Origin: a virus
Length of the DNA stretch: 64,000 nucleotides
IMG/VR virus record: IMGVR_UViG_3300027896_000023
Location: 1 to 64,000 of that record
Strand: one strand, 5' to 3'
The notes below the pieces were generated by a model. It ran no database searches. It was not told the DNA's origin and worked only from the letters and a program-made list of their open reading frames with translations. Below are positions 2,614-39,193 of the stretch, piece by piece. The position numbers were made by a program, and so were the translations under genes. Position 1 is the first letter of the stretch, and each line of letters starts with the position of its first letter.

Positions 2614-3240
2614 TTAAGTGGTTATAGTCACAGACATAGGTCCACTTAAGATCGAGTTCAACCCAACAACACACGCGCTGGATTGACCGCCCGTCTTGTT
2701 CTTCGCCCATAAGCGTACTCGGTCGTAGACTCCGGTGAAAACAACTGCAACTGAAGTTCCTTTAGTAACGTTGATGTCTGTTTGCGCTACACCTGCAGTA
2801 TTCGAGATCGGTGACCAGGCGTCGACGTCAGCGTTATATCCTTCAATTTTATATGTGATGTCGTTTTGGGCAGCTGCTAAAATCGTGATCGTATGCAACG
2901 CGTATCCAGGAACATCTTCATCGAAGACTTCAGTGTAGGCGTTAAGTGTTTTGATAGAGTTCGATAGGCTTTTCTCTGTTACCCAGTTGTTGATGCGGGC
3001 CACTTTGTACTTGAAGTTAGATGCAACATACAAGCTTGAAGACATATCATTTGAAACAGATTCTCGGACGTCAAAGCTTGATTGCAGATTTTTGGTGCTG
3101 ACTTTACGAACTTGGAAACTGGAACTAAGATTTTTACTGGTTGACTTTCTGCAAGTAAAACTACTGGTTAATTCTTTGCTACCTTCTTTTTCAATTGAAA
3201 AATCTGAAGATAGATCATACGAATCGTCTGATAGGCTCAT
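2614..3240 (-). CDS. Putative virion protein with about five 15-aa xLSSSFxxRK repeats and a beta-rich C-terminus
   Basis: Same repeat type as 57388-61986; lies downstream of MCP. Confidence 0.6.
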   Translation of the reverse strand: MSLSDDSYDLSSDFSIEKEGSKELTSSFTCRKSTSKNLSSSFQVRKVSTKNLQSSFDVRESVSNDMSSSLYVASNFKYKVARINNWVTEKSLSNSIKTLNAYTEVFDEDVPGYALHTITILAAAQNDITYKIEGYNADVDAWSPISNTAGVAQTDINVTKGTSVAVVFTGVYDRVRLWAKNKTGGQSSACVVGLNSILSGPMSVTITT

Positions 3241-3285
3241 ACGGTTACTTCTCCTGTCTTAACTTTTATGCTTTATTACTTAGCG

Positions 3286-3308
3286 AAACAAAAAAAAGAA
3301 AATGGGGG
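3286..3308 (-). terminator. Archaeal oligo-T terminator after the capsid operon
   Basis: Minus strand reads CCCCCATTTTCTTTTTTTTGTTT just after the stop of 3332-3574. Confidence 0.5.
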
Positions 3309-3331
3309 TAGTGGTTATTTTTGAAGGAACA

Positions 3332-3574
3332 CTATTTTGGTGGTTCAACCCACATTGGTTTGCCATCCACTACCTGGAAAGGTGTATCTGGCATTGGGTT
3401 AACTGACCGGTTGCCGAACGCAAGATGCTGTGATCCTAAAGGATCCATTACGGGTTGCTTTGCTGGTTCAAGCTGTGCTTCACCGAAGGCATGGTTGCGA
3501 TCGCCTTTTGGCATCGGTTTCATGCCTGTGGTTTTGCCTGGGTTGCCAAAGAACAGACGCGTTGACTCTGGCAT
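3332..3574 (-). CDS. Small Pro-rich hypothetical protein in the head operon
   Basis: Tightly coupled to 3576-3962. Confidence 0.5.
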   Translation of the reverse strand: MPESTRLFFGNPGKTTGMKPMPKGDRNHAFGEAQLEPAKQPVMDPLGSQHLAFGNRSVNPMPDTPFQVVDGKPMWVEPPK

Positions 3575-3575
3575 T

Positions 3576-3962
3576 TTATTCGCCTACCGCCATGAACGGA
3601 AAGATTATCGCTGAGACGTTAGTGAGGTTTGCGATTTCAGATCCAATTCCTGTGTACATCAGTATCTTCTTTGTTGAGTGGTTGAATACAGCGTAGTATG
3701 TGCCTGTTGTGTCTAATTGAACGACCACACGGTAGTTTCCAAGTGGAAACTTGCCTGGGCTAGTGAGTTTTGTAAGATCACATTTCACTCCGCCAGTTTT
3801 GTACATGTGCCCTTTGACTGTTCCGTAGATTACGGTTTGTGCGCGACCGTTTATTCTATCGGATAGTTCACATGGAAAAGCTTGGTCGTCAATGGCTAAC
3901 GTTGCTTGTCGTAGAACAATGAAGGCTTCAGAAAGATTAGTGCTGTCGGCGATTGCTGGCAT
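3576..3962 (-). CDS. Putative capsid decoration/minor head protein (paralog 2)
   Basis: Follows MCP; shares CDL..FP.G.YRV...KK.L..T..G.E and terminal F.A.GE with 3968-4306. Confidence 0.55.
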   Translation of the reverse strand: MPAIADSTNLSEAFIVLRQATLAIDDQAFPCELSDRINGRAQTVIYGTVKGHMYKTGGVKCDLTKLTSPGKFPLGNYRVVVQLDTTGTYYAVFNHSTKKILMYTGIGSEIANLTNVSAIIFPFMAVGE

Positions 3963-3967
3963 TTTGG

Positions 3968-4306
3968 TTATTCCCCTATGGCTATGAAGCTAAAGATTCC
4001 GTTGGTTGATTGGTCACTTGCGCCTGCTTCTGTTCCAAGCGATGTGAATACTAGTAGTTTCTTGTTGTCTGCATCGTAGAGTCCAAGTCTATTTCCAGTG
4101 TTGCTGACCGGGTTTAAAATAACCCGATATTTGCCAGCTGGGAAATAGCTACTTAGGTCACATGAATCTCCACCGCTGTCTGCTGCATGGCTACTTGACG
4201 CCGTTAAGGTTCCACGTATGACCCGTTGACCACGTTGTTGCACTCGACCGCCGGACTCTTCTCCTGCGAAGGCCGTGTTGTCAAGTGATACCGTACAGTT
4301 ACCCAA
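3968..4306 (-). CDS. Putative capsid decoration/minor head protein (paralog 1)
   Basis: Immediately after MCP; paralog of 3576-3962. Confidence 0.55.
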   Translation of the reverse strand: MGNCTVSLDNTAFAGEESGGRVQQRGQRVIRGTLTASSSHAADSGGDSCDLSSYFPAGKYRVILNPVSNTGNRLGLYDADNKKLLVFTSLGTEAGASDQSTNGIFSFIAIGE

Positions 4307-4312
4307 AGGTGA

Positions 4313-5539
4313 TTACTCCTTTAGGTCTCTGATCTTGCATTGTACGTTGAAACGGGTGCAGATCTCGTCGGCCATAGTTCTGTATAGACCCTTGTCGCCT
4401 AACGCGTTCACTGCGAATGGGTTGCCTGTGCTGATACCTGCTTCGAAGTATTGTGTTGGCTTTGCAATCTTCATGAGTAGGTAGTCTGTGTCTTCAAGAT
4501 AGAATCTGCTTAAGCCTACTGGAGTTCCACTTGGTTGGTCTGCGAGTGCGTCCTTGGTTGGAATCATTGGGACACCGTTGTAGGTTGCAACTATGAAGCC
4601 TGCTGCCATGCCTTCTACGCCTTTGACTCCGCCGTATGTTGGTACAACTGTCTTGTATTCAACAAAGCGTTGCTGGGCCTGTAGAAGTCTCTGGACTGCT
4701 TTCAATCCGTCGAAACCTGTTTGGATTACTTTTGGTGTTCCGCCTGCTTGCCAAACGTCTTTGAATGCGCCATCCATGATGTCTAAGGTTAAGCTTCTGA
4801 GTGTTGGGTTGCTTCCACTGTACTCGATGATTGCGTCTGCCCAAGAATAGTTTGAAGCATCTGATCGGTTGACTGTTGATCCGTTAACGTAAACGTCGTT
4901 GCTTGCTGCATGAGGTGACAGTGATCCATCTGCGCCTTTGAGTGTGCCATCAGATTCAACTTTTGCGCTAAAGATGCGGTCTAAGCTTTGTACGTCGTAA
5001 CCTTCCTGGGTTGCGCCAACAGCTACTCCTTCAGCGTTCAACATACGGTTGATGTGTTCTGCATGATGAAGACCCATGATCTCTCTCATTTGTCTCATGT
5101 AGTCTCCAAGAGAATCATCAATCGTGCCGAGGAATTGGGCTGCTTCTGACGCGTTGAAGCTGTGACCAACAGTTTTTGGTTTGCTGTAGAGTTGCATCCA
5201 TGTGGGCTTTAGAGTATCTGGAATTCCACTGTTGTCTACTAGTCCGCCTGGTACAACTGTGTATCCGCCTGAGATACCATACGTGGTGAATGCTGGTTTC
5301 TTTGTCAGTACACGGAAACCACTGTGATCCCATACTGCTTTAGGCTGCATTGCAAAAGTGTTGGCTTCAAGGTTCAATTGACTCCAAATCTTAGCGCCGT
5401 AAATCGGGTTGTAAATTCCGGTTGTCGTGGTTAAAATTGGTGCATCTGCTTTCATTATGTTGTCGGCTAAGCCGAGTCCGTAGTAGTAACGTTCCATGTC
5501 TTCCATGGTTCTAATTTGGAAAATACTTTGTCCTGACAT
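4313..5539 (-). CDS. Major capsid protein (HK97 fold, magrovirus/halovirus-like)
   Basis: RTMEDMERYYYG, KADAPIL, IYGAKIWSQLN, VATYNGVPMIP and GLYRTM motifs; position after the protease. Confidence 0.9.
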   Translation of the reverse strand: MSGQSIFQIRTMEDMERYYYGLGLADNIMKADAPILTTTTGIYNPIYGAKIWSQLNLEANTFAMQPKAVWDHSGFRVLTKKPAFTTYGISGGYTVVPGGLVDNSGIPDTLKPTWMQLYSKPKTVGHSFNASEAAQFLGTIDDSLGDYMRQMREIMGLHHAEHINRMLNAEGVAVGATQEGYDVQSLDRIFSAKVESDGTLKGADGSLSPHAASNDVYVNGSTVNRSDASNYSWADAIIEYSGSNPTLRSLTLDIMDGAFKDVWQAGGTPKVIQTGFDGLKAVQRLLQAQQRFVEYKTVVPTYGGVKGVEGMAAGFIVATYNGVPMIPTKDALADQPSGTPVGLSRFYLEDTDYLLMKIAKPTQYFEAGISTGNPFAVNALGDKGLYRTMADEICTRFNVQCKIRDLKE

Positions 5540-6350: not shown

Positions 6351-7772
6351 ATTCTCGTCCTCTGTTGATCTCTCTCGGCTATCTATGTTTTTAAGCGTTC
6401 TGTCAACGTTACTCTCTAGCGTAACTGTTGACTGTTCGGTTGAGGCTTTTTCTTGTTCTTCAGCTACTTCATGACCAAATTTTTTCATGGCAGCCTTAGC
6501 TTTTCCTTTCATTTCAGACCACTCGGCTTCTGAGTATCCGCCTGCTTCGCGGTTCTTGTCAACGTGAAGATAGTTCCAGGCAGCTTGCACGTGTTCCTCA
6601 TCGAGAGGATACTTGAAGTTCGCTGGATCTGCAAACTGGTCATCTGGGATATGCACGTATTCTTTCGGCTTAGACTTGTGGCCTTCTGGCTTCTGTTCGA
6701 TCAATGCGATGGCGCCGTCGACTCCTGCTGCAGCAGGCACTGGATCTGCTTTAGCTACAGGAATTAACGCCAGGTGAAACAGCGGTGTTGCATCCGGGTA
6801 AGCTGAAGCGTCTGTGCCAAAGACGTAGCCTAGATCTGGCCAGCATTCTGCAGGTATAGCTTTGCTGAATTGTGTTTGGATCTGTCGACGCAGCGGATTC
6901 TCTGCATCCATCTTCACAATCAAGTCTACTGAGTGGCTATCTCCTTTCGCTATGATGTCTGCCTGGCACACAAAGTTCTCCCGGAGAATGAATGTTTTAT
7001 TCAGGATGTTTGGCATGATGCTGAGTTCTTTGAGGATCTGTTCGCCTTTGGAAAGTTCTGCGCTTTTCGCTATGAATGTGGCTTCATCTATGAGTCCCAT
7101 GTCTTTGTAGCTTTTGAGAACCTCAAATCCTGACAGCGTGTTCTTGCCACGTTTGCAGATGGTAACTTCGTAGAGTTCAATGTCGTCAATCTGCCAGAAC
7201 GGCCCCATGGATCCTTTCGCTACTGGACGTCGTTTGAGGCATCTTCCGCCTATGCTGAAAGCATTCAGTTCGCCCTTGCAAGCCATATCCCAAACGCGAT
7301 TTGCAATCTCTAAGTCATCTCGTAATTCGCAGAGAACGTAGAGTCCGCGATCATCCACATGGGTGTAGTGGTCTTTGCCCTGGCTGTCTTTGATGTGTTC
7401 ACCCAGGAGAATTTTACCAAGAGTTATGTTGCTATGTTCGAGGTTTACATTGGCGTATTTTTCTCCTGCAGCAACCATTTTTGTGAGGGCATTCTGCAGG
7501 GCTGGAAGCGTGATAAGTTCGTTTTGTTTATCGATTACTTCCACACTGGCGTATCCGCCGATTAAGCGGCGTTTGCCGTCTTTGAATATGTTGTCAGAAG
7601 TGAACCGTGCATCTATTCTAATGTAAGATGGATACGGTTTTTCGACAAGTTCTTTCAACAGATAATTTGTAATTGGGTGTTCAAGCACCATTTTCGCCGT
7701 TGGATCTCCGGCAAAAGCGCTTTTCTCCAGGTCAGAAAGTAAGGTAGTTACGTCTGTTCGCATCTTAATCAA
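5541..7772 (-). CDS. HK97-family prohead protease fused to a DUF6582-like domain and a scaffold region
   Basis: IGGYASVEVIDKQNELI, NLEHSN (His), LNAFSIGG (Ser), LYEVTIC; FADPANFKYPLDEEHVQAAW; Ala/Pro/Glu-rich C-terminus. Confidence 0.88.
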   Translation of the reverse strand: MIKMRTDVTTLLSDLEKSAFAGDPTAKMVLEHPITNYLLKELVEKPYPSYIRIDARFTSDNIFKDGKRRLIGGYASVEVIDKQNELITLPALQNALTKMVAAGEKYANVNLEHSNITLGKILLGEHIKDSQGKDHYTHVDDRGLYVLCELRDDLEIANRVWDMACKGELNAFSIGGRCLKRRPVAKGSMGPFWQIDDIELYEVTICKRGKNTLSGFEVLKSYKDMGLIDEATFIAKSAELSKGEQILKELSIMPNILNKTFILRENFVCQADIIAKGDSHSVDLIVKMDAENPLRRQIQTQFSKAIPAECWPDLGYVFGTDASAYPDATPLFHLALIPVAKADPVPAAAGVDGAIALIEQKPEGHKSKPKEYVHIPDDQFADPANFKYPLDEEHVQAAWNYLHVDKNREAGGYSEAEWSEMKGKAKAAMKKFGHEVAEEQEKASTEQSTVTLESNVDRTLKNIDSRERSTEDENLSNIAKTIGTQEIVGTGTGPSEGNKVGTSTTGPAIASRKTRVAKMEELLKKAGMDPAAITDDPPEKEAACPPAPEKEAAFPPAAAAPVAPQKEAAFPPAAAEAPEKDAEAAAKEAAAKEAAAKEAASKEVMDEAALKSLLDLDAKGLLPAEMSKMVQKMAEKAHISKSDLKMEKLEKAVENLTKLVQDSLTIQKSAHLPTAAEVAENLKHQASTIRKSASTPGAGPEEIGAPAPTVTGPRTLQEMYKTPFGQVHNLNDRRNQIMNSGAS
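5960..6170 (-). repeat. Coding repeats EKEAA(F/C)PPA and AAAKE in the scaffold region
   Basis: Visible in the translation. Confidence 0.7.
6383..6402 (-). promoter_or_regulatory. Putative late promoter CAGAACGCTTAAAAACATAG (internal copy)
   Basis: 20/20 identical to 7791-7810; contains TATA-like CTTAAAAA. Confidence 0.7.
7400..7455. repeat. 56-bp segment duplicated exactly at 37080-37135
   Basis: CACCCAGGAGAATTTTACCAAGAGTTATGTTGCTATGTTCGAGGTTTACATTGGCG at both loci. Confidence 0.95.
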
Positions 7773-7790: not shown

Positions 7791-7810
7791 CTATGTTTTT
7801 AAGCGTTCTG
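7791..7810 (-). promoter_or_regulatory. Putative late promoter of the protease-MCP operon
   Basis: TATA-like element about 25 nt upstream of the start; motif repeated elsewhere. Confidence 0.75.
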
Positions 7811-17920: not shown

Positions 17921-17940
17921 CAGAACACTTAAAAACATAG
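17921..17940 (+). promoter_or_regulatory. Late-promoter copy CAGAACACTTAAAAACATAG
   Basis: 19/20 match to 7791-7810; 30 nt upstream of 17970. Confidence 0.7.
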
Positions 17941-21139: not shown

Positions 21140-21912
21140 TAACGAAAAAGGTGTGTGATCCAAAAAAGACAACTAAAAAAGCGTTGGGCGCGCGCGCGCG
21201 CCCAAACCAGCCTTAAAGGCTTGGTGAACGGAACAGCACCGTTTAATCAACTGCCAAACATCCCAATACCATTACGGGAACGGATGGATGCTAAACTGAA
21301 TGGCAAGGTCTACATGGTTAAACGGTGAAATAAAAATCTGTGGTGCTTCATCAAAAGATTTAGGACGGTTGACGATTGCCTATCGTACCTTAACATATAG
21401 CTCCTGCTAGGTGTGTTGCCTCCAGATTAAGCTGGACGGTGCTAGTTAACCTGATGTACAAATAAGGGTTAATTTGAGAGACTGAGACAACAAAAAATCC
21501 GCTAATTATGAGTCCCAACTTTTACGGTTGCCTGCGGTATGTTAAGGAAAAACTGCGCAGAAATGGCAAAAGACTGATGCCAAAGGAACTTCAATGTTTC
21601 AATAAACCGCCCTAAATCGAGTAGGCAATCGGGACGGGCTAGCACCGTAACCCAACAACATAACTGCAAGTGAAACACGTACATAAATTTGAAAGGTAAA
21701 TTGCAATAAACCGAGTATGGACACCCGCAAGATAGTCACGAAAGGGAGATTTACCGATTAAAGTTAAAACAGTTATGGCTTGGTAACGGTGCACCCGCAC
21801 TACTGAAATTCTACAACACTTGCGTTATGGCTTAACAAGTCATGGCGCAGACACACACACGCAGGCTAATACTCGCCTGCCGACCGCAAGGTCGTACCCC
21901 TAGATCTTTTTT
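21140..21912 (+). ncRNA. Candidate large ornate ncRNA (~770 nt)
   Basis: No plus-strand ORF; long-range helices, a G-U-containing stem, a GNRA loop; upstream TATA and downstream T6. Confidence 0.65.
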
Positions 21913-30157: not shown

Positions 30158-30448
30158 CCTACGTTGACTCCTACAATCTACACATCGCCCAAGCGAATCA
30201 AACTTTACAGCATCAGAAGATTTGCCACAGTACAGGCAACGCTTCAACACTACTACAGGTGAAACCTGACTTGCTGTCGCCGCCACAGCAACTGCAGCAG
30301 CACGCCCCCGTCGAACAGGCGAAAGCTTCTTCTTTTCTACAGGTGCAGATGACTCGCCCAAAGAGTGCCCGCATTTTGTACAACAGTTCCTCGCTTTCCT
30401 TTCAGCGTACAAACGACGCATCAATTCAGCCTTAGTAAGCCTTACCAT
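30152..30448 (-). CDS. Basic Zn-finger protein, opposite strand to its neighbours
   Basis: CCTKCG, CLYC, CVDC; the start codon lies inside the first tandem repeat. Confidence 0.6.
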   Translation of the reverse strand: MVRLTKAELMRRLYAERKARNCCTKCGHSLGESSAPVEKKKLSPVRRGRAAAVAVAATASQVSPVVVLKRCLYCGKSSDAVKFDSLGRCVDCRSQRRL

Positions 30449-30519
30449 ACAGCATCAATTCAGCCTTAGTAAGCCTTACCATACAGCATCAATTCAGCCT
30501 TAGTAAGCCTTACCATACA
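30418..30519. repeat. Three exact 34-bp tandem repeats GCATCAATTCAGCCTTAGTAAGCCTTACCATACA
   Basis: Copies at 30418, 30452 and 30486; further GTAA..TTAC palindromes to ~30578. Confidence 0.95.
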
Positions 30520-31509
30520 ACAGAGTAAGCCTTACCACAAGATAAGAGTAACGTTACCGCCAATAGTAACAGTTACTACACCTATAGAAAGAACCAAACC
30601 CCCAACCAACCACCCACCCAAACATCAACGGCACTTTTTTGTATGTTGTTTTTGGTTGTGCGGATTGTTTGTTTGTTGTTTGTTGTTGGAGTGGGTTGTT
30701 GATGGGCACGGCTGGTATATGTTGGGGTTCTCTGGGCATATTGTTCTTGTTGTTACAGGTGTAGATGTCATAGCATCATTTGGCACTGCTGAATTTGCTG
30801 GTGTCTATCATTCAAGAAAAAATGTTGAAGCATCAATGCGTACTCCGTTTCAAGCGGCATCACCATGACAACATACATACTTTACGTTTGACAACACGTT
30901 TAAAAGACGGTTGCTCTTGTACAGTACAGGTGTAAGTGAGTGATATGCGGATGGATAGATGGGGTTGCAAGGGGAAGGAAGGAAAAGTTACAGGTGAAAT
31001 TGTATGGGTAAGTACGGTAGAAAACCTGAACAGGTAAAGCAAGACACGCATCCACGTCTCTGCCGAAAATGTGGAAAGCGAACCTACAGTTGGAGTTGTT
31101 GCGGTCAACAGACTGCACGAGTTAATGACAAAGCGTTTACCAAGAACAGGCTTAGCCAAAATCTCGGTGACAAAGCAGATTACAGGTGAAGAGGTGAAAA
31201 TGAAATGAGTGAACCAAAGATTTACTGGCGAGACATCGGGGAACATGGTGCAATAACACAGCGCGACGGATGCTACTACTGGGAGGCATGGCGAAGAAGC
31301 TACACCTGCACAACAATACCTGATGGGTGAAGCTAAAGTAAAGAATCGGTAACCACGTGTGCCATTTGGCAAACATGGATGCAAGCCATACTCCCGCCGA
31401 GTGTGGAAGAGTAACTCTCTTGTTCCGAAGGTTCGTCGGAAGACATTCACCGAACTGCAAAGCGGTCTGGTGACAAAGAGTTTACATGAAAAATACAGGT
31501 GAAGAATGA

Positions 31510-35500: not shown

Positions 35501-36793
35501 AACCTTAGACATCCGTAAGAAAGGAGCTATCAATGGCAAAGCTGAACTGCAATTCACAGCCCGCCCTGAAACCATTGGAGACGAAGACAATGAAGAGGAA
35601 GTATTCATTGTCACTGTGGAAGAACGAGGGATGCTAGATGCAACTGGAAACTACAAGCAGTTCAAGACGCCACGTGGAACCTACACAATCAAGGGTACAG
35701 AGAAAGCTGAGTTCAAAATTATCAACGAGGTGCTACCATGACCGAACTACAGGTGAAGAAACAGAACCTCCGCCAACAGTTTGAACATTTCCTACTGACC
35801 GACTATCCTTCTGATGCAGGAGAAACATTGAAGGAAGCCCAGAAGTACGCTAAAGAAATGTACTTCAGTGACCCAGACGGCAGCATACCTGACCAATACA
35901 TAGGCGAAGATATACTGAATGACATCAACAGCAAATTCTACCGTGTGCTTTCATTCATCCGCAGCCTATTCGAAGCGAAGCATCCAGAAGCTAAAGACGT
36001 CTTTATCAACGTAGACCCAAGCTACGAAGACCACACCTGCTATGTGGTACATCAATACAGCAGCCACAAAGTTCTACTCAGTGGCAACGACAAAGCATGG
36101 AACTTCTGGTGGCGTAACGTGTATGAATTCAAACGGTTCGTAACGTCTACGCTTGAGGCGATGGAAGAAATCTACAAGCCCCAAACATTGCACGTAGTCA
36201 TCAACAACTACGGCGGAGTTCTGAATGACATTGACCCATTCGTTGATGAAGCAGATGCATTGAAACAGTTTGAAGTGTACGCTGAAATTCCCTATGCTAC
36301 ATACGCCAAACGCAAAGCAGCTTACGACAAAGGCAAACGCGGCAACCTCTGGGATGATGAAGACACAGATGTACAGGTGTGGGAAATCAAAGTGATACCC
36401 AAAGGAGGCAAGCCTGAGTAATGCCGTACCTTGTGAAAGCTAAGATAACAGGAGAGAGACAAAAGGTGAAGCGTCTTCTGGAAGAAGTAGACTTGCTTGC
36501 CCAACAACTACACGTGAAGGTTGAGTACGATGCCGTTGAATGATAACCTGCAAGAGTGGTACAACGAACACATGAAGACACTCGTTGACCAAGCATCTAA
36601 AGAACAGCCCCTTCCCAAAGGAAGCAACATGTTAGAGATGGTGAACCGCCTGATAGCACGAAACAAAATCCATGCCAAGACACTGATACTCAAAGACCTA
36701 CAGGTGCAGTTCAACCTGACACCTTACCCTGAAGAAGTGAAACTTGTCTGTCCCATTTGTGACAGAGAAATATCGGAGGAACATCCAGTATGA
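32598..36793 (+). other. Run of about 12 small, mostly acidic or Cys-rich hypothetical ORFs
   Basis: Coupled ORFs starting at 32598, 32882, 33295, 33485, 33678, ~34177, 34529, 34732, 35289, 35738, 36521. Confidence 0.65.
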
Positions 36794-37070
36794 AAGTTGA
36801 GATGAAAGAACAGAAACATTTGTGGATAGTCTTTGGAGACCAAGCTACCCGCAACCAAGCAGAGGTCATCATAGACCTTGAACACAACGATGTACGCATT
36901 TGCGATTATCGTAGCCAAGTAGTCAAGGTGCGGCTGAAACCAGACCTACAGGTGAAGGACATCTTAGTCAACGACGTATTCCAAGCAGTCGAACAGCCAT
37001 CAACGCTTTTATTGCATTGCGTGGTGGCGGATTGTCGCCGCCGAGTAACAAGAAGTATTCGCAGCCATAA
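36790..37070 (+). pseudogene. Possibly frameshifted hypothetical gene
   Basis: After FQAVE a shifted frame reads TAINAFIALRGGGLSPPSNKKYSQP-stop; the annotated frame instead runs through the foreign 56-bp copy. Confidence 0.35.
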
Positions 37071-37079
37071 AAATGGGTA

Positions 37080-37135
37080 CACCCAGGAGAATTTTACCAA
37101 GAGTTATGTTGCTATGTTCGAGGTTTACATTGGCG
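37080..37135 (+). repeat. Exact copy of 7400-7455, antisense to the prohead protease mRNA
   Basis: 56/56 identity, 60/61 with extension. Confidence 0.95.
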
Positions 37136-37144
37136 GATTTCGAT

Positions 37145-37450
37145 ATGAAAAGAAAACCGAAAAGACCTAGATGCTTTCAGAAAGCGCACAGTGGAACAGA
37201 AGAGTTTGAGAAATGCCAACTGTGTCTTTGGCAAGATTGCTGTGAAGCACATTACCAACTCACTTAGGCTCTCTTAAGTTGGTTTACGATTAAAGATGCA
37301 TCAGTTGTTATCCGCTTCCGCATCGACGGCAAAGTGCACCAAGAAATTGTGGACTATCCAATGATCGAAGTCTCTGCAGACATATCCGCATTGAAGACGT
37401 ACCTGCACAAAGCAGTAGCAGACTTCAACAGCAGGGGGAACAAGCAATGA
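37145..37450 (+). pseudogene. 101-codon gene interrupted by an in-frame TAG at 37265-37267
   Basis: ...HYQLT*ALLSWFTIKDASVVIRF...NKQ stop; the final stop overlaps the next ATG (ATGA). Confidence 0.55.
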
Positions 37451-38058
37451 CTGAAGCTACAGCTGCAGTTAAACCAAGCCGCTGCGACAACTGCACCGTT
37501 GATCCAGAAGTCAGACGCAACACCCATTGTTGTGAACAGTGCACTCCAGAGAATCCGCAAAGCCAAACAGAAAACAGCAGAGTCTTCCTCGTCGGCAGCC
37601 ATTCAACAACAATACCAAACCTATCTTCATACCGCGTAACCAAGTATCCGAACGGAACCTACAGGTGCACCTGCAGAAACTTCATCTTCAACCGTGACAA
37701 ACCAGACCAACCTGAAGACAAACACATCGCAGACGCCAAAGCCAAATCAGATAACGTATCTGAAATCACCAACCTCGACATGAAAGCTGTACTGATTCAT
37801 CTAGAGAACGTAGCCTCCATCATTGAGAAACATGCTGACTTACCAGACCAGCCGACAGTATGGTTTGGCCACGTGCGTGATACCCTGCGTGCCCACGAGT
37901 ACAAACTTACAGGTGCAGATCAAGCGTACCTGATGACGGAGATCACCGGCGCCGAAACTTTCTGGATGCGATTCGATCAGAAGCGCAGGCAAATAGACCA
38001 TCCTGAAGTGAAAGCTTCAGGTGAAGAAAAGAAGAAGACAGGAGTGTATTTCTTATGA
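37447..38058 (+). CDS. SWIM Zn-finger protein
   Basis: YRVT....YRCTCRNF...DKHI. Confidence 0.7.
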   Translation: MTEATAAVKPSRCDNCTVDPEVRRNTHCCEQCTPENPQSQTENSRVFLVGSHSTTIPNLSSYRVTKYPNGTYRCTCRNFIFNRDKPDQPEDKHIADAKAKSDNVSEITNLDMKAVLIHLENVASIIEKHADLPDQPTVWFGHVRDTLRAHEYKLTGADQAYLMTEITGAETFWMRFDQKRRQIDHPEVKASGEEKKKTGVYFL

Positions 38059-38191
38059 CCGAGAGAACAGCACACACCCAGTTACCTGGAGACAACCTTC
38101 TTCCAAAGAAGAAAGTAAAGTGCCCCTTCTGTCCCAAAGAGTTTGACACCGTTATAGAAATGATAAAGCATGATGATGAGGCGCATGAGTA

Positions 38192-39193
38192 ATGCCTAAA
38201 GAAAGATGTATGTTAGGATATGACAGCGACTTATCTGCACTCCACATGGAGAACATCCATGAGTATCTCGTGCAGGTAAAGTGGGATGGCAACCGTGCCG
38301 TAACAGAATTCAACAGAGGCACAGTGCACATCGTTGGCAGAAGCGGAGAAGATTGGACAGACCGCCTGCCTGAAATGGTAGAGGCCCTTCAGCAATTAGC
38401 CAAAGCTACAGCTGCAACTTACTTCAAAATTGACGGAGAGATTGTAGTGTTCAAGGATGGACACAGCCACCTGCCAAGCGCCAACGCACGAGTCCACACT
38501 AAAGATAGGCAACGCATCAAGCTGATCCTGCGACGCACCCTCCCCGTAACCTACATGATATTCGACGTACTCAACTGGAACGGCAACGATTTTACAGGTG
38601 CATCTTTAACAAGACGCGACGAAATCCTGGAGAACATCTTCCAAATTCCACACATGTTACCAGACGGAACCCGCCTAGACGGTCGCAGCCTACAGCTGCA
38701 GATTCCCGGCTTACAGAAAGTTCCAACGTACAGCAACCCTGACGAATGCTGGGAAGAGTGGGTAATGAAACGTAAAGAAGAAGGAGTTATGCTGAAGAAA
38801 AAGGACAGCATCTACATGTTCGACCGCAGCAGAGATTGGTTGAAAATCAAAGCACGAGACAAAGGAACATTCAAAGTAGTAGGATACACTGCTGGCAATG
38901 GCAACCGAGAAGAACTCTATGGTGCACTGGTGATTGCTAATCCAACTACAGGTGCGTACTGTGGACGGTGTGGTGGCGGCTTTTCACAGGAGATGGCTGA
39001 AGACATAATTACAGTTCTAAAGCATGAACCGCAAACGGGGTTACCTTTTACGGAGAGTGAAGTGGGTAGACCATACACTGCAGTTGATACACATATGTTG
39101 GTTGAGGTTGCTTTTCAAGCTACGGACAATTATAGTACAACTGGAAAGCTTCGAAGCCCACAATTAATACGCTGGTGGATACCTGAATCCTAA
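38192..39193 (+). CDS. lig: ATP-dependent DNA ligase (minimal NTase + OB)
   Basis: KWDG, IDGEIV, YMIFDVL, EGVMLK, WLKIK, LRSP. Confidence 0.92.
   Translation: MPKERCMLGYDSDLSALHMENIHEYLVQVKWDGNRAVTEFNRGTVHIVGRSGEDWTDRLPEMVEALQQLAKATAATYFKIDGEIVVFKDGHSHLPSANARVHTKDRQRIKLILRRTLPVTYMIFDVLNWNGNDFTGASLTRRDEILENIFQIPHMLPDGTRLDGRSLQLQIPGLQKVPTYSNPDECWEEWVMKRKEEGVMLKKKDSIYMFDRSRDWLKIKARDKGTFKVVGYTAGNGNREELYGALVIANPTTGAYCGRCGGGFSQEMAEDIITVLKHEPQTGLPFTESEVGRPYTAVDTHMLVEVAFQATDNYSTTGKLRSPQLIRWWIPES

Follow-up and report, generated by a model that had tools for sequence, protein, structure and literature searches.

Templated insertions arise by serial template switching, in FoSTeS/MMBIR and in synthesis-dependent microhomology-mediated end joining, and they have been described mainly in eukaryotic and bacterial chromosomes and among the outcomes of genome editing. 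In programmed bypass of the T4 gene 60 type, the take-off and landing codons match, a stop codon immediately follows the take-off site, and the gap measures about 50 nt. For antisense control, the part of the phage P1 account drawn on here describes the C4 RNA of the immI region as a discrete RNA with its own promoter and a defined binding site in its own operon (PMC8198154). The mini-CRISPR arrays of the archaeal viruses SPV1 and SPV2, as presented in the corresponding part of their report, consist of host-type repeats and a leader, with spacers directed against related viruses and not against the carrier (PMC6858448).

We describe here a short ectopic gene copy in an uncultivated freshwater virus that can be compared with each of these systems. 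The window analyzed, 64,000 nt in length, is the first part of an 84,165-nt IMG/VR virus record that is linear and estimated to be 68% complete. A 56-nt segment of its early region (37080-37135) is identical at all 56 positions to a segment of the head-protease gene (7400-7455) on the same DNA strand, as the preliminary description had reported, and the similarity continues without gaps to 68 nt (7393-7460 and 37073-37140, 96%), with three mismatches that all lie at the edges (7396/37076 T>G, 7399/37079 T>A, and 7456/37136 T>G). By our own arithmetic, some 7e-25 exact 56-mers would be expected by chance in 84 kb. A self-search of the whole record, which the preliminary description had called for, recovered these two copies and no more, and in the list of all exact repeats of at least 16 nt the 56-mer is the sole long dispersed repeat, the remainder belonging either to a 34-nt tandem array at 30418 or to the repeat-protein genes (57-61 and 65-69 kb). 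Neither the vicinity of the copy nor the rest of the record contains other dispersed gene fragments; captured pieces thus form no array or system here, and the notion that the copy is one member of such an array was dropped. The 56-nt copy is a real duplication that is probably accidental and recent, and we lean, with some confidence, towards a one-off templated insertion, in which template switching during replication or break repair produced an ectopic duplication, and not towards a dedicated genetic element. The features on which the comparison depends are collected in Table 1.

Table 1. Positions in the window of the early-region copy, the neighboring genes, the donor, and the junction features.
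Feature	Positions	Strand	Remarks
Exact ectopic 56-nt protease-gene copy	37080..37135	+	Would be antisense to protease mRNA in a transcript shared with the local plus-strand genes
Extended 68-nt similarity (96%)	37073..37140	+	All 3 mismatches within the outer 12 nt; edges interpreted as microhomologies at the junctions (left 5/7, right ATTT)
126-aa ORF	36790..37170	+	Residues 1-~65 (to ~36984) conserved; tail crosses the copy and overlaps the start of the next gene
40-aa Cys-rich micro-gene	37145..37267	+	43-aa stand-alone homolog, 68-72% identity
Left 9-nt direct repeat TGGCGGATT	37025..37033	+	5' arm of a GC-rich hairpin, about 37022-37043
46 nt without a match in the record or the phage collection	37034..37079	+	Between the left 9-mer and the copy; best match in the record 12 nt
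Right 9-nt direct repeat	37131..37139	+	First 5 nt within the protease copy; donor TGGCGTATTT, 9/10 match to target
Prohead protease-scaffold fusion gene, 743 aa	5541..7772	-	Pfam Peptidase_S78 and DUF6582; PHROG head maturation protease
Donor segment, codons ~106-125 (ANVNLEHSNITLGKILLG), including H113	7400..7455	-	Inside the protease gene

The assignment of the donor gene comes from several profile matches. Pfam Peptidase_S78 matches at 23 bits (cut-off 21) over residues 138-216 only, DUF6582 is also matched, and PHROG head-maturation-protease profiles cover residues 65-223 of the 743-aa protein. The 7400 copy encodes (Y)ANVNLEHSNITLGKILLG, residues 106-125 of this gene. Protease relatives are present in three viral contigs, two with 66-68% amino acid identity and one with 37%, and all three retain this peptide block in frame; H113, S114, N115, and I116 are invariant in four of four aligned proteases. 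Because the relatives keep this block in frame in the protease, the early copy is the derived one and the protease gene is its source; the same conservation leads us to reject copying in the reverse direction, from the early locus to the protease. Within this essential gene, the alignment shows the strongest conservation over the copied segment, and the proteases of the nearest relatives vary at many synonymous sites within it. The preliminary description had placed the copied region around the predicted catalytic His. The invariant H113 is a candidate for this residue; the S78 match starts only at residue 138, and a PDB profile search for the catalytic His returned nothing usable (best E=0.51). 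A scan of genome contigs with the protease alignment gave one weak relative from 53 pattern matches, and this lies in a 'MAG: bacterium'.

A 20-21-nt A/T-rich element is found near the same gene and elsewhere. It occurs exactly at 6383-6402 and 7791-7810 in the same orientation, at 17921-17940 in inverted orientation, and at ~74370 of the full record, and its 13-nt core is present at seven sites with two mismatches or fewer against 2.1 expected. Read along the coding strand, one copy precedes the protease start by 19 nt and another precedes the first plus-strand gene (17970) by 30 nt, while a further copy falls within the protease-scaffold gene, around codon 460. The element looks like a promoter, and the internal copy could possibly drive the scaffold part separately.

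At the early locus, the 126-aa ORF (36790..37170, translation table 11) reads through the copy. Its relatives are shorter, at 78, 71, and 69 aa, align to residues 1-~65 only, and stop 4-12 aa past ..NDVF, and DNA similarity ends near 36984. The last ~60 codons are unconserved and read the protease fragment backwards, and judged by sequence alone, a small conserved early protein would now bear an unconserved tail of ~60 aa derived from a reversed protease fragment. Downstream, the exact copy ends 9 nt ahead of the micro-gene ATG at 37145. An exhaustive HMMER search with the 64-aa ORF 37073..37267 gave four matches, to proteins of 2229, 43, 415, and 1011 aa. The 43-aa protein stands alone, with 72% identity over residues 31-62 of the 64-aa ORF and 68% over the aligned micro-protein, and because such a stand-alone homolog exists we take the 40-aa micro-gene to be real. 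Given the unconserved tail on one side and a real micro-gene on the other, the copy lies in effect within a spacer between two small early genes. The earlier statement that it fills an intergenic gap is therefore correct in effect and not by the letter: an ORF in table 11 spans the copy, but only its first ~65 codons are conserved.

Two other readings of the coding potential were considered and rejected. If the small ORF and the micro-gene had been fused in an ancestor, in one frame without the 106 nt that now separate them, a protein of about 123 aa would be expected; HMMER found no match of that size, and the 43-aa protein is the only one that aligns to most of the micro-protein in one piece. 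A protein mimic read from the minus strand of the early locus, in the protease frame, has no start giving at least 30 aa. We also note that the 2229-aa protein matches the micro-protein in 17 separate stretches, so that the motif may occur as a module in repeats as well.

The surrounding region contains other features of interest in their own right. Between 38192 and 40269, a 261-aa ORF with a TPD-family match stands between two versions of the last ~72 residues of an ATP-dependent DNA ligase, of which 55/72 are identical, an arrangement that looks like the insertion of a homing-type nuclease bringing a replacement 3' end. A motif around CTACAGGTGAAG, with a CTACAGCTG variant, is present in dozens of copies on both strands (e.g. 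28819, 28990, 32272, 35747, 36946, and 40509), often just ahead of start codons and also within genes, with one in the 126-aa ORF at 36944-36957. A perfect 22-nt GC-rich palindrome lies at 21184-21205, in an ORF-poor stretch between gene blocks.

A repeat of this kind could also be produced by assembly, through a repeat-induced misjoin or a chimera. The contig is metagenomic, and the stretch was found in the public data of one run only, a 2017 freshwater metagenome that may be the contig's own source, so that the support it gives is not independent. In the Logan k=31 contigs of that run, the 56-mer forms its own unitig, into which four contig ends run: a 36.8-kb contig terminates in the protease copy, a 29.6-kb contig begins in the protease copy and stops 30 nt inside the early copy, and a 29.0-kb contig picks up within the early copy, 30 nt short of its end. 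The two early-region flanks each reach 30 nt into the repeat with no other letters and at a depth of 21-24, and since the contigs enter the repeat from both flanks, both early-region junctions are present in reads at flank depth. The protease is unbroken and aligns along its length to its relatives, which fixes the pairing of contig 2 through the repeat to contig 1, and this in turn leaves contig 1 through the repeat to contig 4, as assembled. An identical 126-aa product spanning the whole copy is moreover on record from two contigs, the longer of them 96,511 nt. The depth of the repeat unitig is 32.5, which is 1.3-1.7 times that of the four flanking contigs (19.5-24.3) and short of the approximately 44, or twice the flanks, expected if every genome has both copies. 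Notwithstanding this shortfall, we regard an artefact as highly unlikely, and the chimeric assembly that the preliminary description had held up against the copy does not apply, both junctions being found in the Logan contigs of the freshwater run.

One further difference between the two assemblies concerns the array of three tandem 34-nt units at 30418-30522. The Logan contig between the two 56-mers is 29,616 nt long and the corresponding interval in the window is 29,684 nt; the 68-nt gap equals two units, and the difference would be consistent with collapse or copy-number variation of the array.

The junctions of the copy have an anatomy that is unusually legible. On the right, donor TGGCGTATTT and target TGGCGGATTT agree at 9 of 10 positions, and at the left end of the copy five of seven bases are common to donor and target. 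The 9-mer TGGCGGATT occurs at 37025 and 37131, as had been noted, and nowhere else on either strand of the 84-kb record, with ~5e-4 occurrences expected within 150 nt, and its two copies bracket a block of 106 nt. The three mismatches of the extended similarity all fall in its outer 12 nt, for which the probability under random decay is 220/50116 = 0.004, and this confinement suggests that the edges are microhomologies through which the event took place, and not sites of later divergence. Nothing else in the 84-kb record matches the 46-nt part of the block (best 12 nt), and the 67 nt covering it have no match in the phage collection.

In all these respects the locus resembles described templated insertions. 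The inserted stretch is a short ectopic copy of the same genome, identical at 56 of 56 positions to its donor site, there is microhomology at both junctions, and a short direct repeat brackets the insert, as would be left by a return to the point of departure. The insert is also composite, as templated insertions are, with 46 nt followed by 56 nt derived from the protease. It differs from the examples known from chromosomes and editing in that it lies in a viral genome and in that one of its templates was not matched in the searches. The repair-mediated capture raised as one option in the preliminary description thus draws support from the two junction microhomologies, from the unique 9-nt repeat around 106 nt, and from a conserved donor in the virus's own protease gene. 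Among the papers listed by our literature search on templated insertions in bacteriophages, there was genome-editing and repair work only and nothing on phage genomes.

If we assume that template switching operates in this virus or its host, the following series of steps is plausible. A growing DNA strand would leave the early locus just after TGGCGGATT (37033) and take up 46 nt from another template. A short microhomology would then let it move 29.7 kb to the virus's own protease gene and copy 56 nt there, and it would return to its departure point through annealing of donor TGGCGTATTT to target TGGCGGATTT. The outcome would be an insertion of 106 nt bracketed by a 9-nt direct repeat. The order of the switches is that suggested by the junctions, and the event may well be recent and without function.

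Several considerations speak against a simple accident. The undecayed identity of the core suits recency but would equally suit selection for perfect pairing, and the copy ends exactly 9 nt before the start codon of the conserved micro-gene, a position at which pairing between RNAs might have an effect. Among the 106 bases of the insertion, 46 match nothing in the record or the phage collection. The two 56-bp direct repeats, which stand 29,680 bp apart, could recombine; they should cost the virus some deletions, so their retention at full depth may point to an advantage. The comparison of conservation, furthermore, covers distant relatives only, and about 12 kb of the genome lies outside the record, the sizes of the Logan contigs and the 96,511-nt contig pointing to a map of about 96.5 kb.

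A different route to the same block would be the capture of a DNA fragment at a staggered double-strand break, possibly cut by the virus's own nuclease, followed by end joining and sealing by its ATP-dependent ligase, with the 9-nt repeat as a filled-in target-site duplication. Such an event would explain the direct repeat that brackets the block, and the region shows signs of break-and-repair activity, with the ligase 1 kb downstream and the TPD-family nuclease ORF between the duplicated ligase 3' ends (55/72). However, the donor identity enters the right repeat by 5 nt and the match across it is 9/10, which break capture would have to attribute to a coincidence of about 3e-5 by our own arithmetic, and it is this that makes it the weaker variant compared with a template switch. 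There are no terminal inverted repeats, and the proposed Ku-like protein lacks sequence support from Pfam or PDB: the candidate had no Pfam match at E<=0.001 (an unrelated family appears at E=0.1) and gave only CutA-like chance matches in PDB, and it was set aside. We consider capture at a staggered break improbable.

Mobile-element readings fare no better. Terminal inverted repeats are absent, no reverse transcriptase was found (there is no RVT_1 match in the record, and control genomes did match), and 18 of 18 core adenines are unchanged, which together exclude transposons and retro-elements. In particular, a miniature transposable element was rejected because its ends share inverted matches of at most 4 nt and no additional copies exist. 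The three edge mismatches do fall at minus-strand adenines, as in a diversity-generating retroelement, yet none of the core adenines is altered, and this candidate was also discarded.

The matched 9-mers also recall the take-off and landing codons of T4 gene 60, and omission of the 106 nt would preserve the micro-gene frame. A bypass of this type was rejected nonetheless: the ORF continues to 37170 with no stop after the first 9-mer, the gap would be double that of the known case, and the relatives encode the two parts separately.

The preliminary description had also offered a role in CRISPR immunity, in which the copy would act as a virus-borne guide against related viruses or as a decoy or shield against a host crRNA targeting the protease gene. 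The copied block, as the most conserved of an essential gene, is the type of site favored by host or virus-borne spacers, and virus-borne mini-arrays are known in archaeal viruses (PMC6858448). Like the SPV1 and SPV2 arrays described in that part of the report, the copy is a short viral-gene match in an intergenic-like position of a virus genome; unlike them it has neither host-type repeats nor a leader, and it is a perfect self-match. The only flanking repeat is 9 nt long and overlaps the copy, with no CRISPR-type repeats alongside, and a leader-like promoter was not found. The match is to the virus's own genome, whereas the mini-array spacers in the portion of the source used here target related viruses and not the carrier (PMC6858448). 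The nearest relatives differ at many synonymous sites in the segment, so they would not be matched. The guide, shield, and decoy proposals thus fail on the features that the sequence can address, and a connection with CRISPR is very improbable.

Related genomes were examined for a second copy and for the flanking early genes. The protease comparison used the closest large relative (84,303 nt, 78% complete) and a fragment of 23,178 nt. Each contains only the native copy of its own 151-nt protease segment, save for a 15-nt chance match (E=0.04), and the large relative has no homolog of the flanking early 126-aa or 203-aa proteins. Two loci that do contain the small ORF have neither the tail nor a protease fragment. 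A blastn search of 35700-38200 against 50,697 phage records gave no match. In scans of viral contigs, the confirmed relatives among the pattern matches were 0 of 2 for the 126-aa ORF, 0 of 0 for the 203-aa protein, 0 of 3 for the 227-aa protein, and 0 of 92 for the micro-gene alignment, and the exact 56-mer is absent from the viral contigs searched. A metagenome scan yielded two relatives from 497 pattern matches, both too distant to define the pre-insertion allele. At one of the loci with the small ORF (L004), a 497-aa protein encoded at 3191-4684, directly upstream of the small-ORF homolog, by eye resembles topoisomerase VI A/Spo11-type proteins, a resemblance that could hint at an archaeal host.

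The most interesting alternative to an accident without function is that the copy acts through RNA. RNA transcribed from the plus strand at 37080 is complementary to the protease mRNA, and the perfect complementarity claimed at the outset was borne out by computation, with a 56-bp duplex of -103.6 kcal/mol. The local plus-strand genes are tightly packed, with overlapping stop and start codons, and this dense block makes plus-strand transcription through the copy likely, the more so as no terminator-like site lies near the copy; the sole one is 700 nt away and on the other strand. An early plus-strand RNA would bear 56 nt matching the protease mRNA in antisense, directly upstream of the micro-gene start. 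Two variants of a functional trans mRNA-mRNA switch are plausible to consider. In the first, the early plus-strand RNA would pair with stray protease mRNA and destabilize it. In the second, which we find the more plausible, abundant late protease mRNA would pair with the leader just upstream of the micro-gene and stop its translation late; on the early RNA, 9 nt separate the end of the paired stretch from the micro-gene ATG, and the identity is undecayed.

There is a phage precedent for antisense control in the C4 RNA of P1 (PMC8198154), and the copy resembles C4, as set out in the part of that account used here, in being a phage-encoded RNA segment complementary to another phage message that could exert control by pairing. 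It differs from C4 in that no discrete RNA, promoter, defined end, or processing site is predicted, and in that it pairs with internal codons 29.7 kb away. The target in the protease mRNA is the interior of the gene, codons 106-125, and not the ribosome-binding site or another control region. Nor is the pairing conserved in the relatives searched, since neither of two related records, one large and one small, holds a second copy of the protease segment (0/2; both distant, at 66-68% amino acid identity), and the relatives of the flanking ORF lack the tail altogether.

Searches for signals of a regulatory RNA were likewise negative. Consensus scans, which do not extend to archaeal-type promoters, gave no promoter-like sites in 36000-38200 against a shuffle mean of 2.7, and there was no Rfam match at gathering score across the window, nor at E up to 10 locally. 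Folds around the copy are no better than those of shuffled sequences (z -0.5 and -1.4). If the copy has been co-opted, an A/T-rich octamer at 37066-37073 might even be an archaeal-type TATA box, with a transcript beginning within the copy. Among the papers listed by a literature search on trans-acting antisense between early and late phage genes, none describes an antisense protease-gene copy in an early operon. The antisense or guide RNA envisaged earlier is thus physically possible, with perfect pairing and a dense plus-strand block, but is not accompanied by a promoter-like site, an Rfam match, a significant fold, or a copy in the large relative. As this is a single instance in a single genome, and the junction anatomy alone accounts for the presence of the copy without any function, we think a functional switch unlikely.

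An accident and a function need not be exclusive, and the insertion could have been co-opted after the event. The antisense leader of the micro-gene would then let late protease mRNA switch the micro-gene off, by pairing up to 9 nt from its start codon; this specific scenario is suggested by the position of the copy, and we hold it to be slightly less likely still than a functional switch in general. Co-opted antisense pairing taken broadly, most plausibly as silencing of the adjacent micro-gene by late protease mRNA, is similarly doubtful, lying at or just below the level of the switch.

Mutations of this kind are known, and the copy in this virus is one such event, seen in a single metagenomic genome; the case warns against inferring function from a single perfect antisense match when neither conservation nor expression data accompany it. 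If it is an accident, the locus offers a clean instance from nature of a composite templated insertion within a viral genome, in which the donor, the microhomologies, and the repeat at the departure point can all be read. If co-option were true, it would represent an mRNA-mRNA timing switch born of a templated insertion, a regulatory RNA pairing caught at birth. An accident would also show how a new antisense complementarity and a new protein tail can arise in one step.
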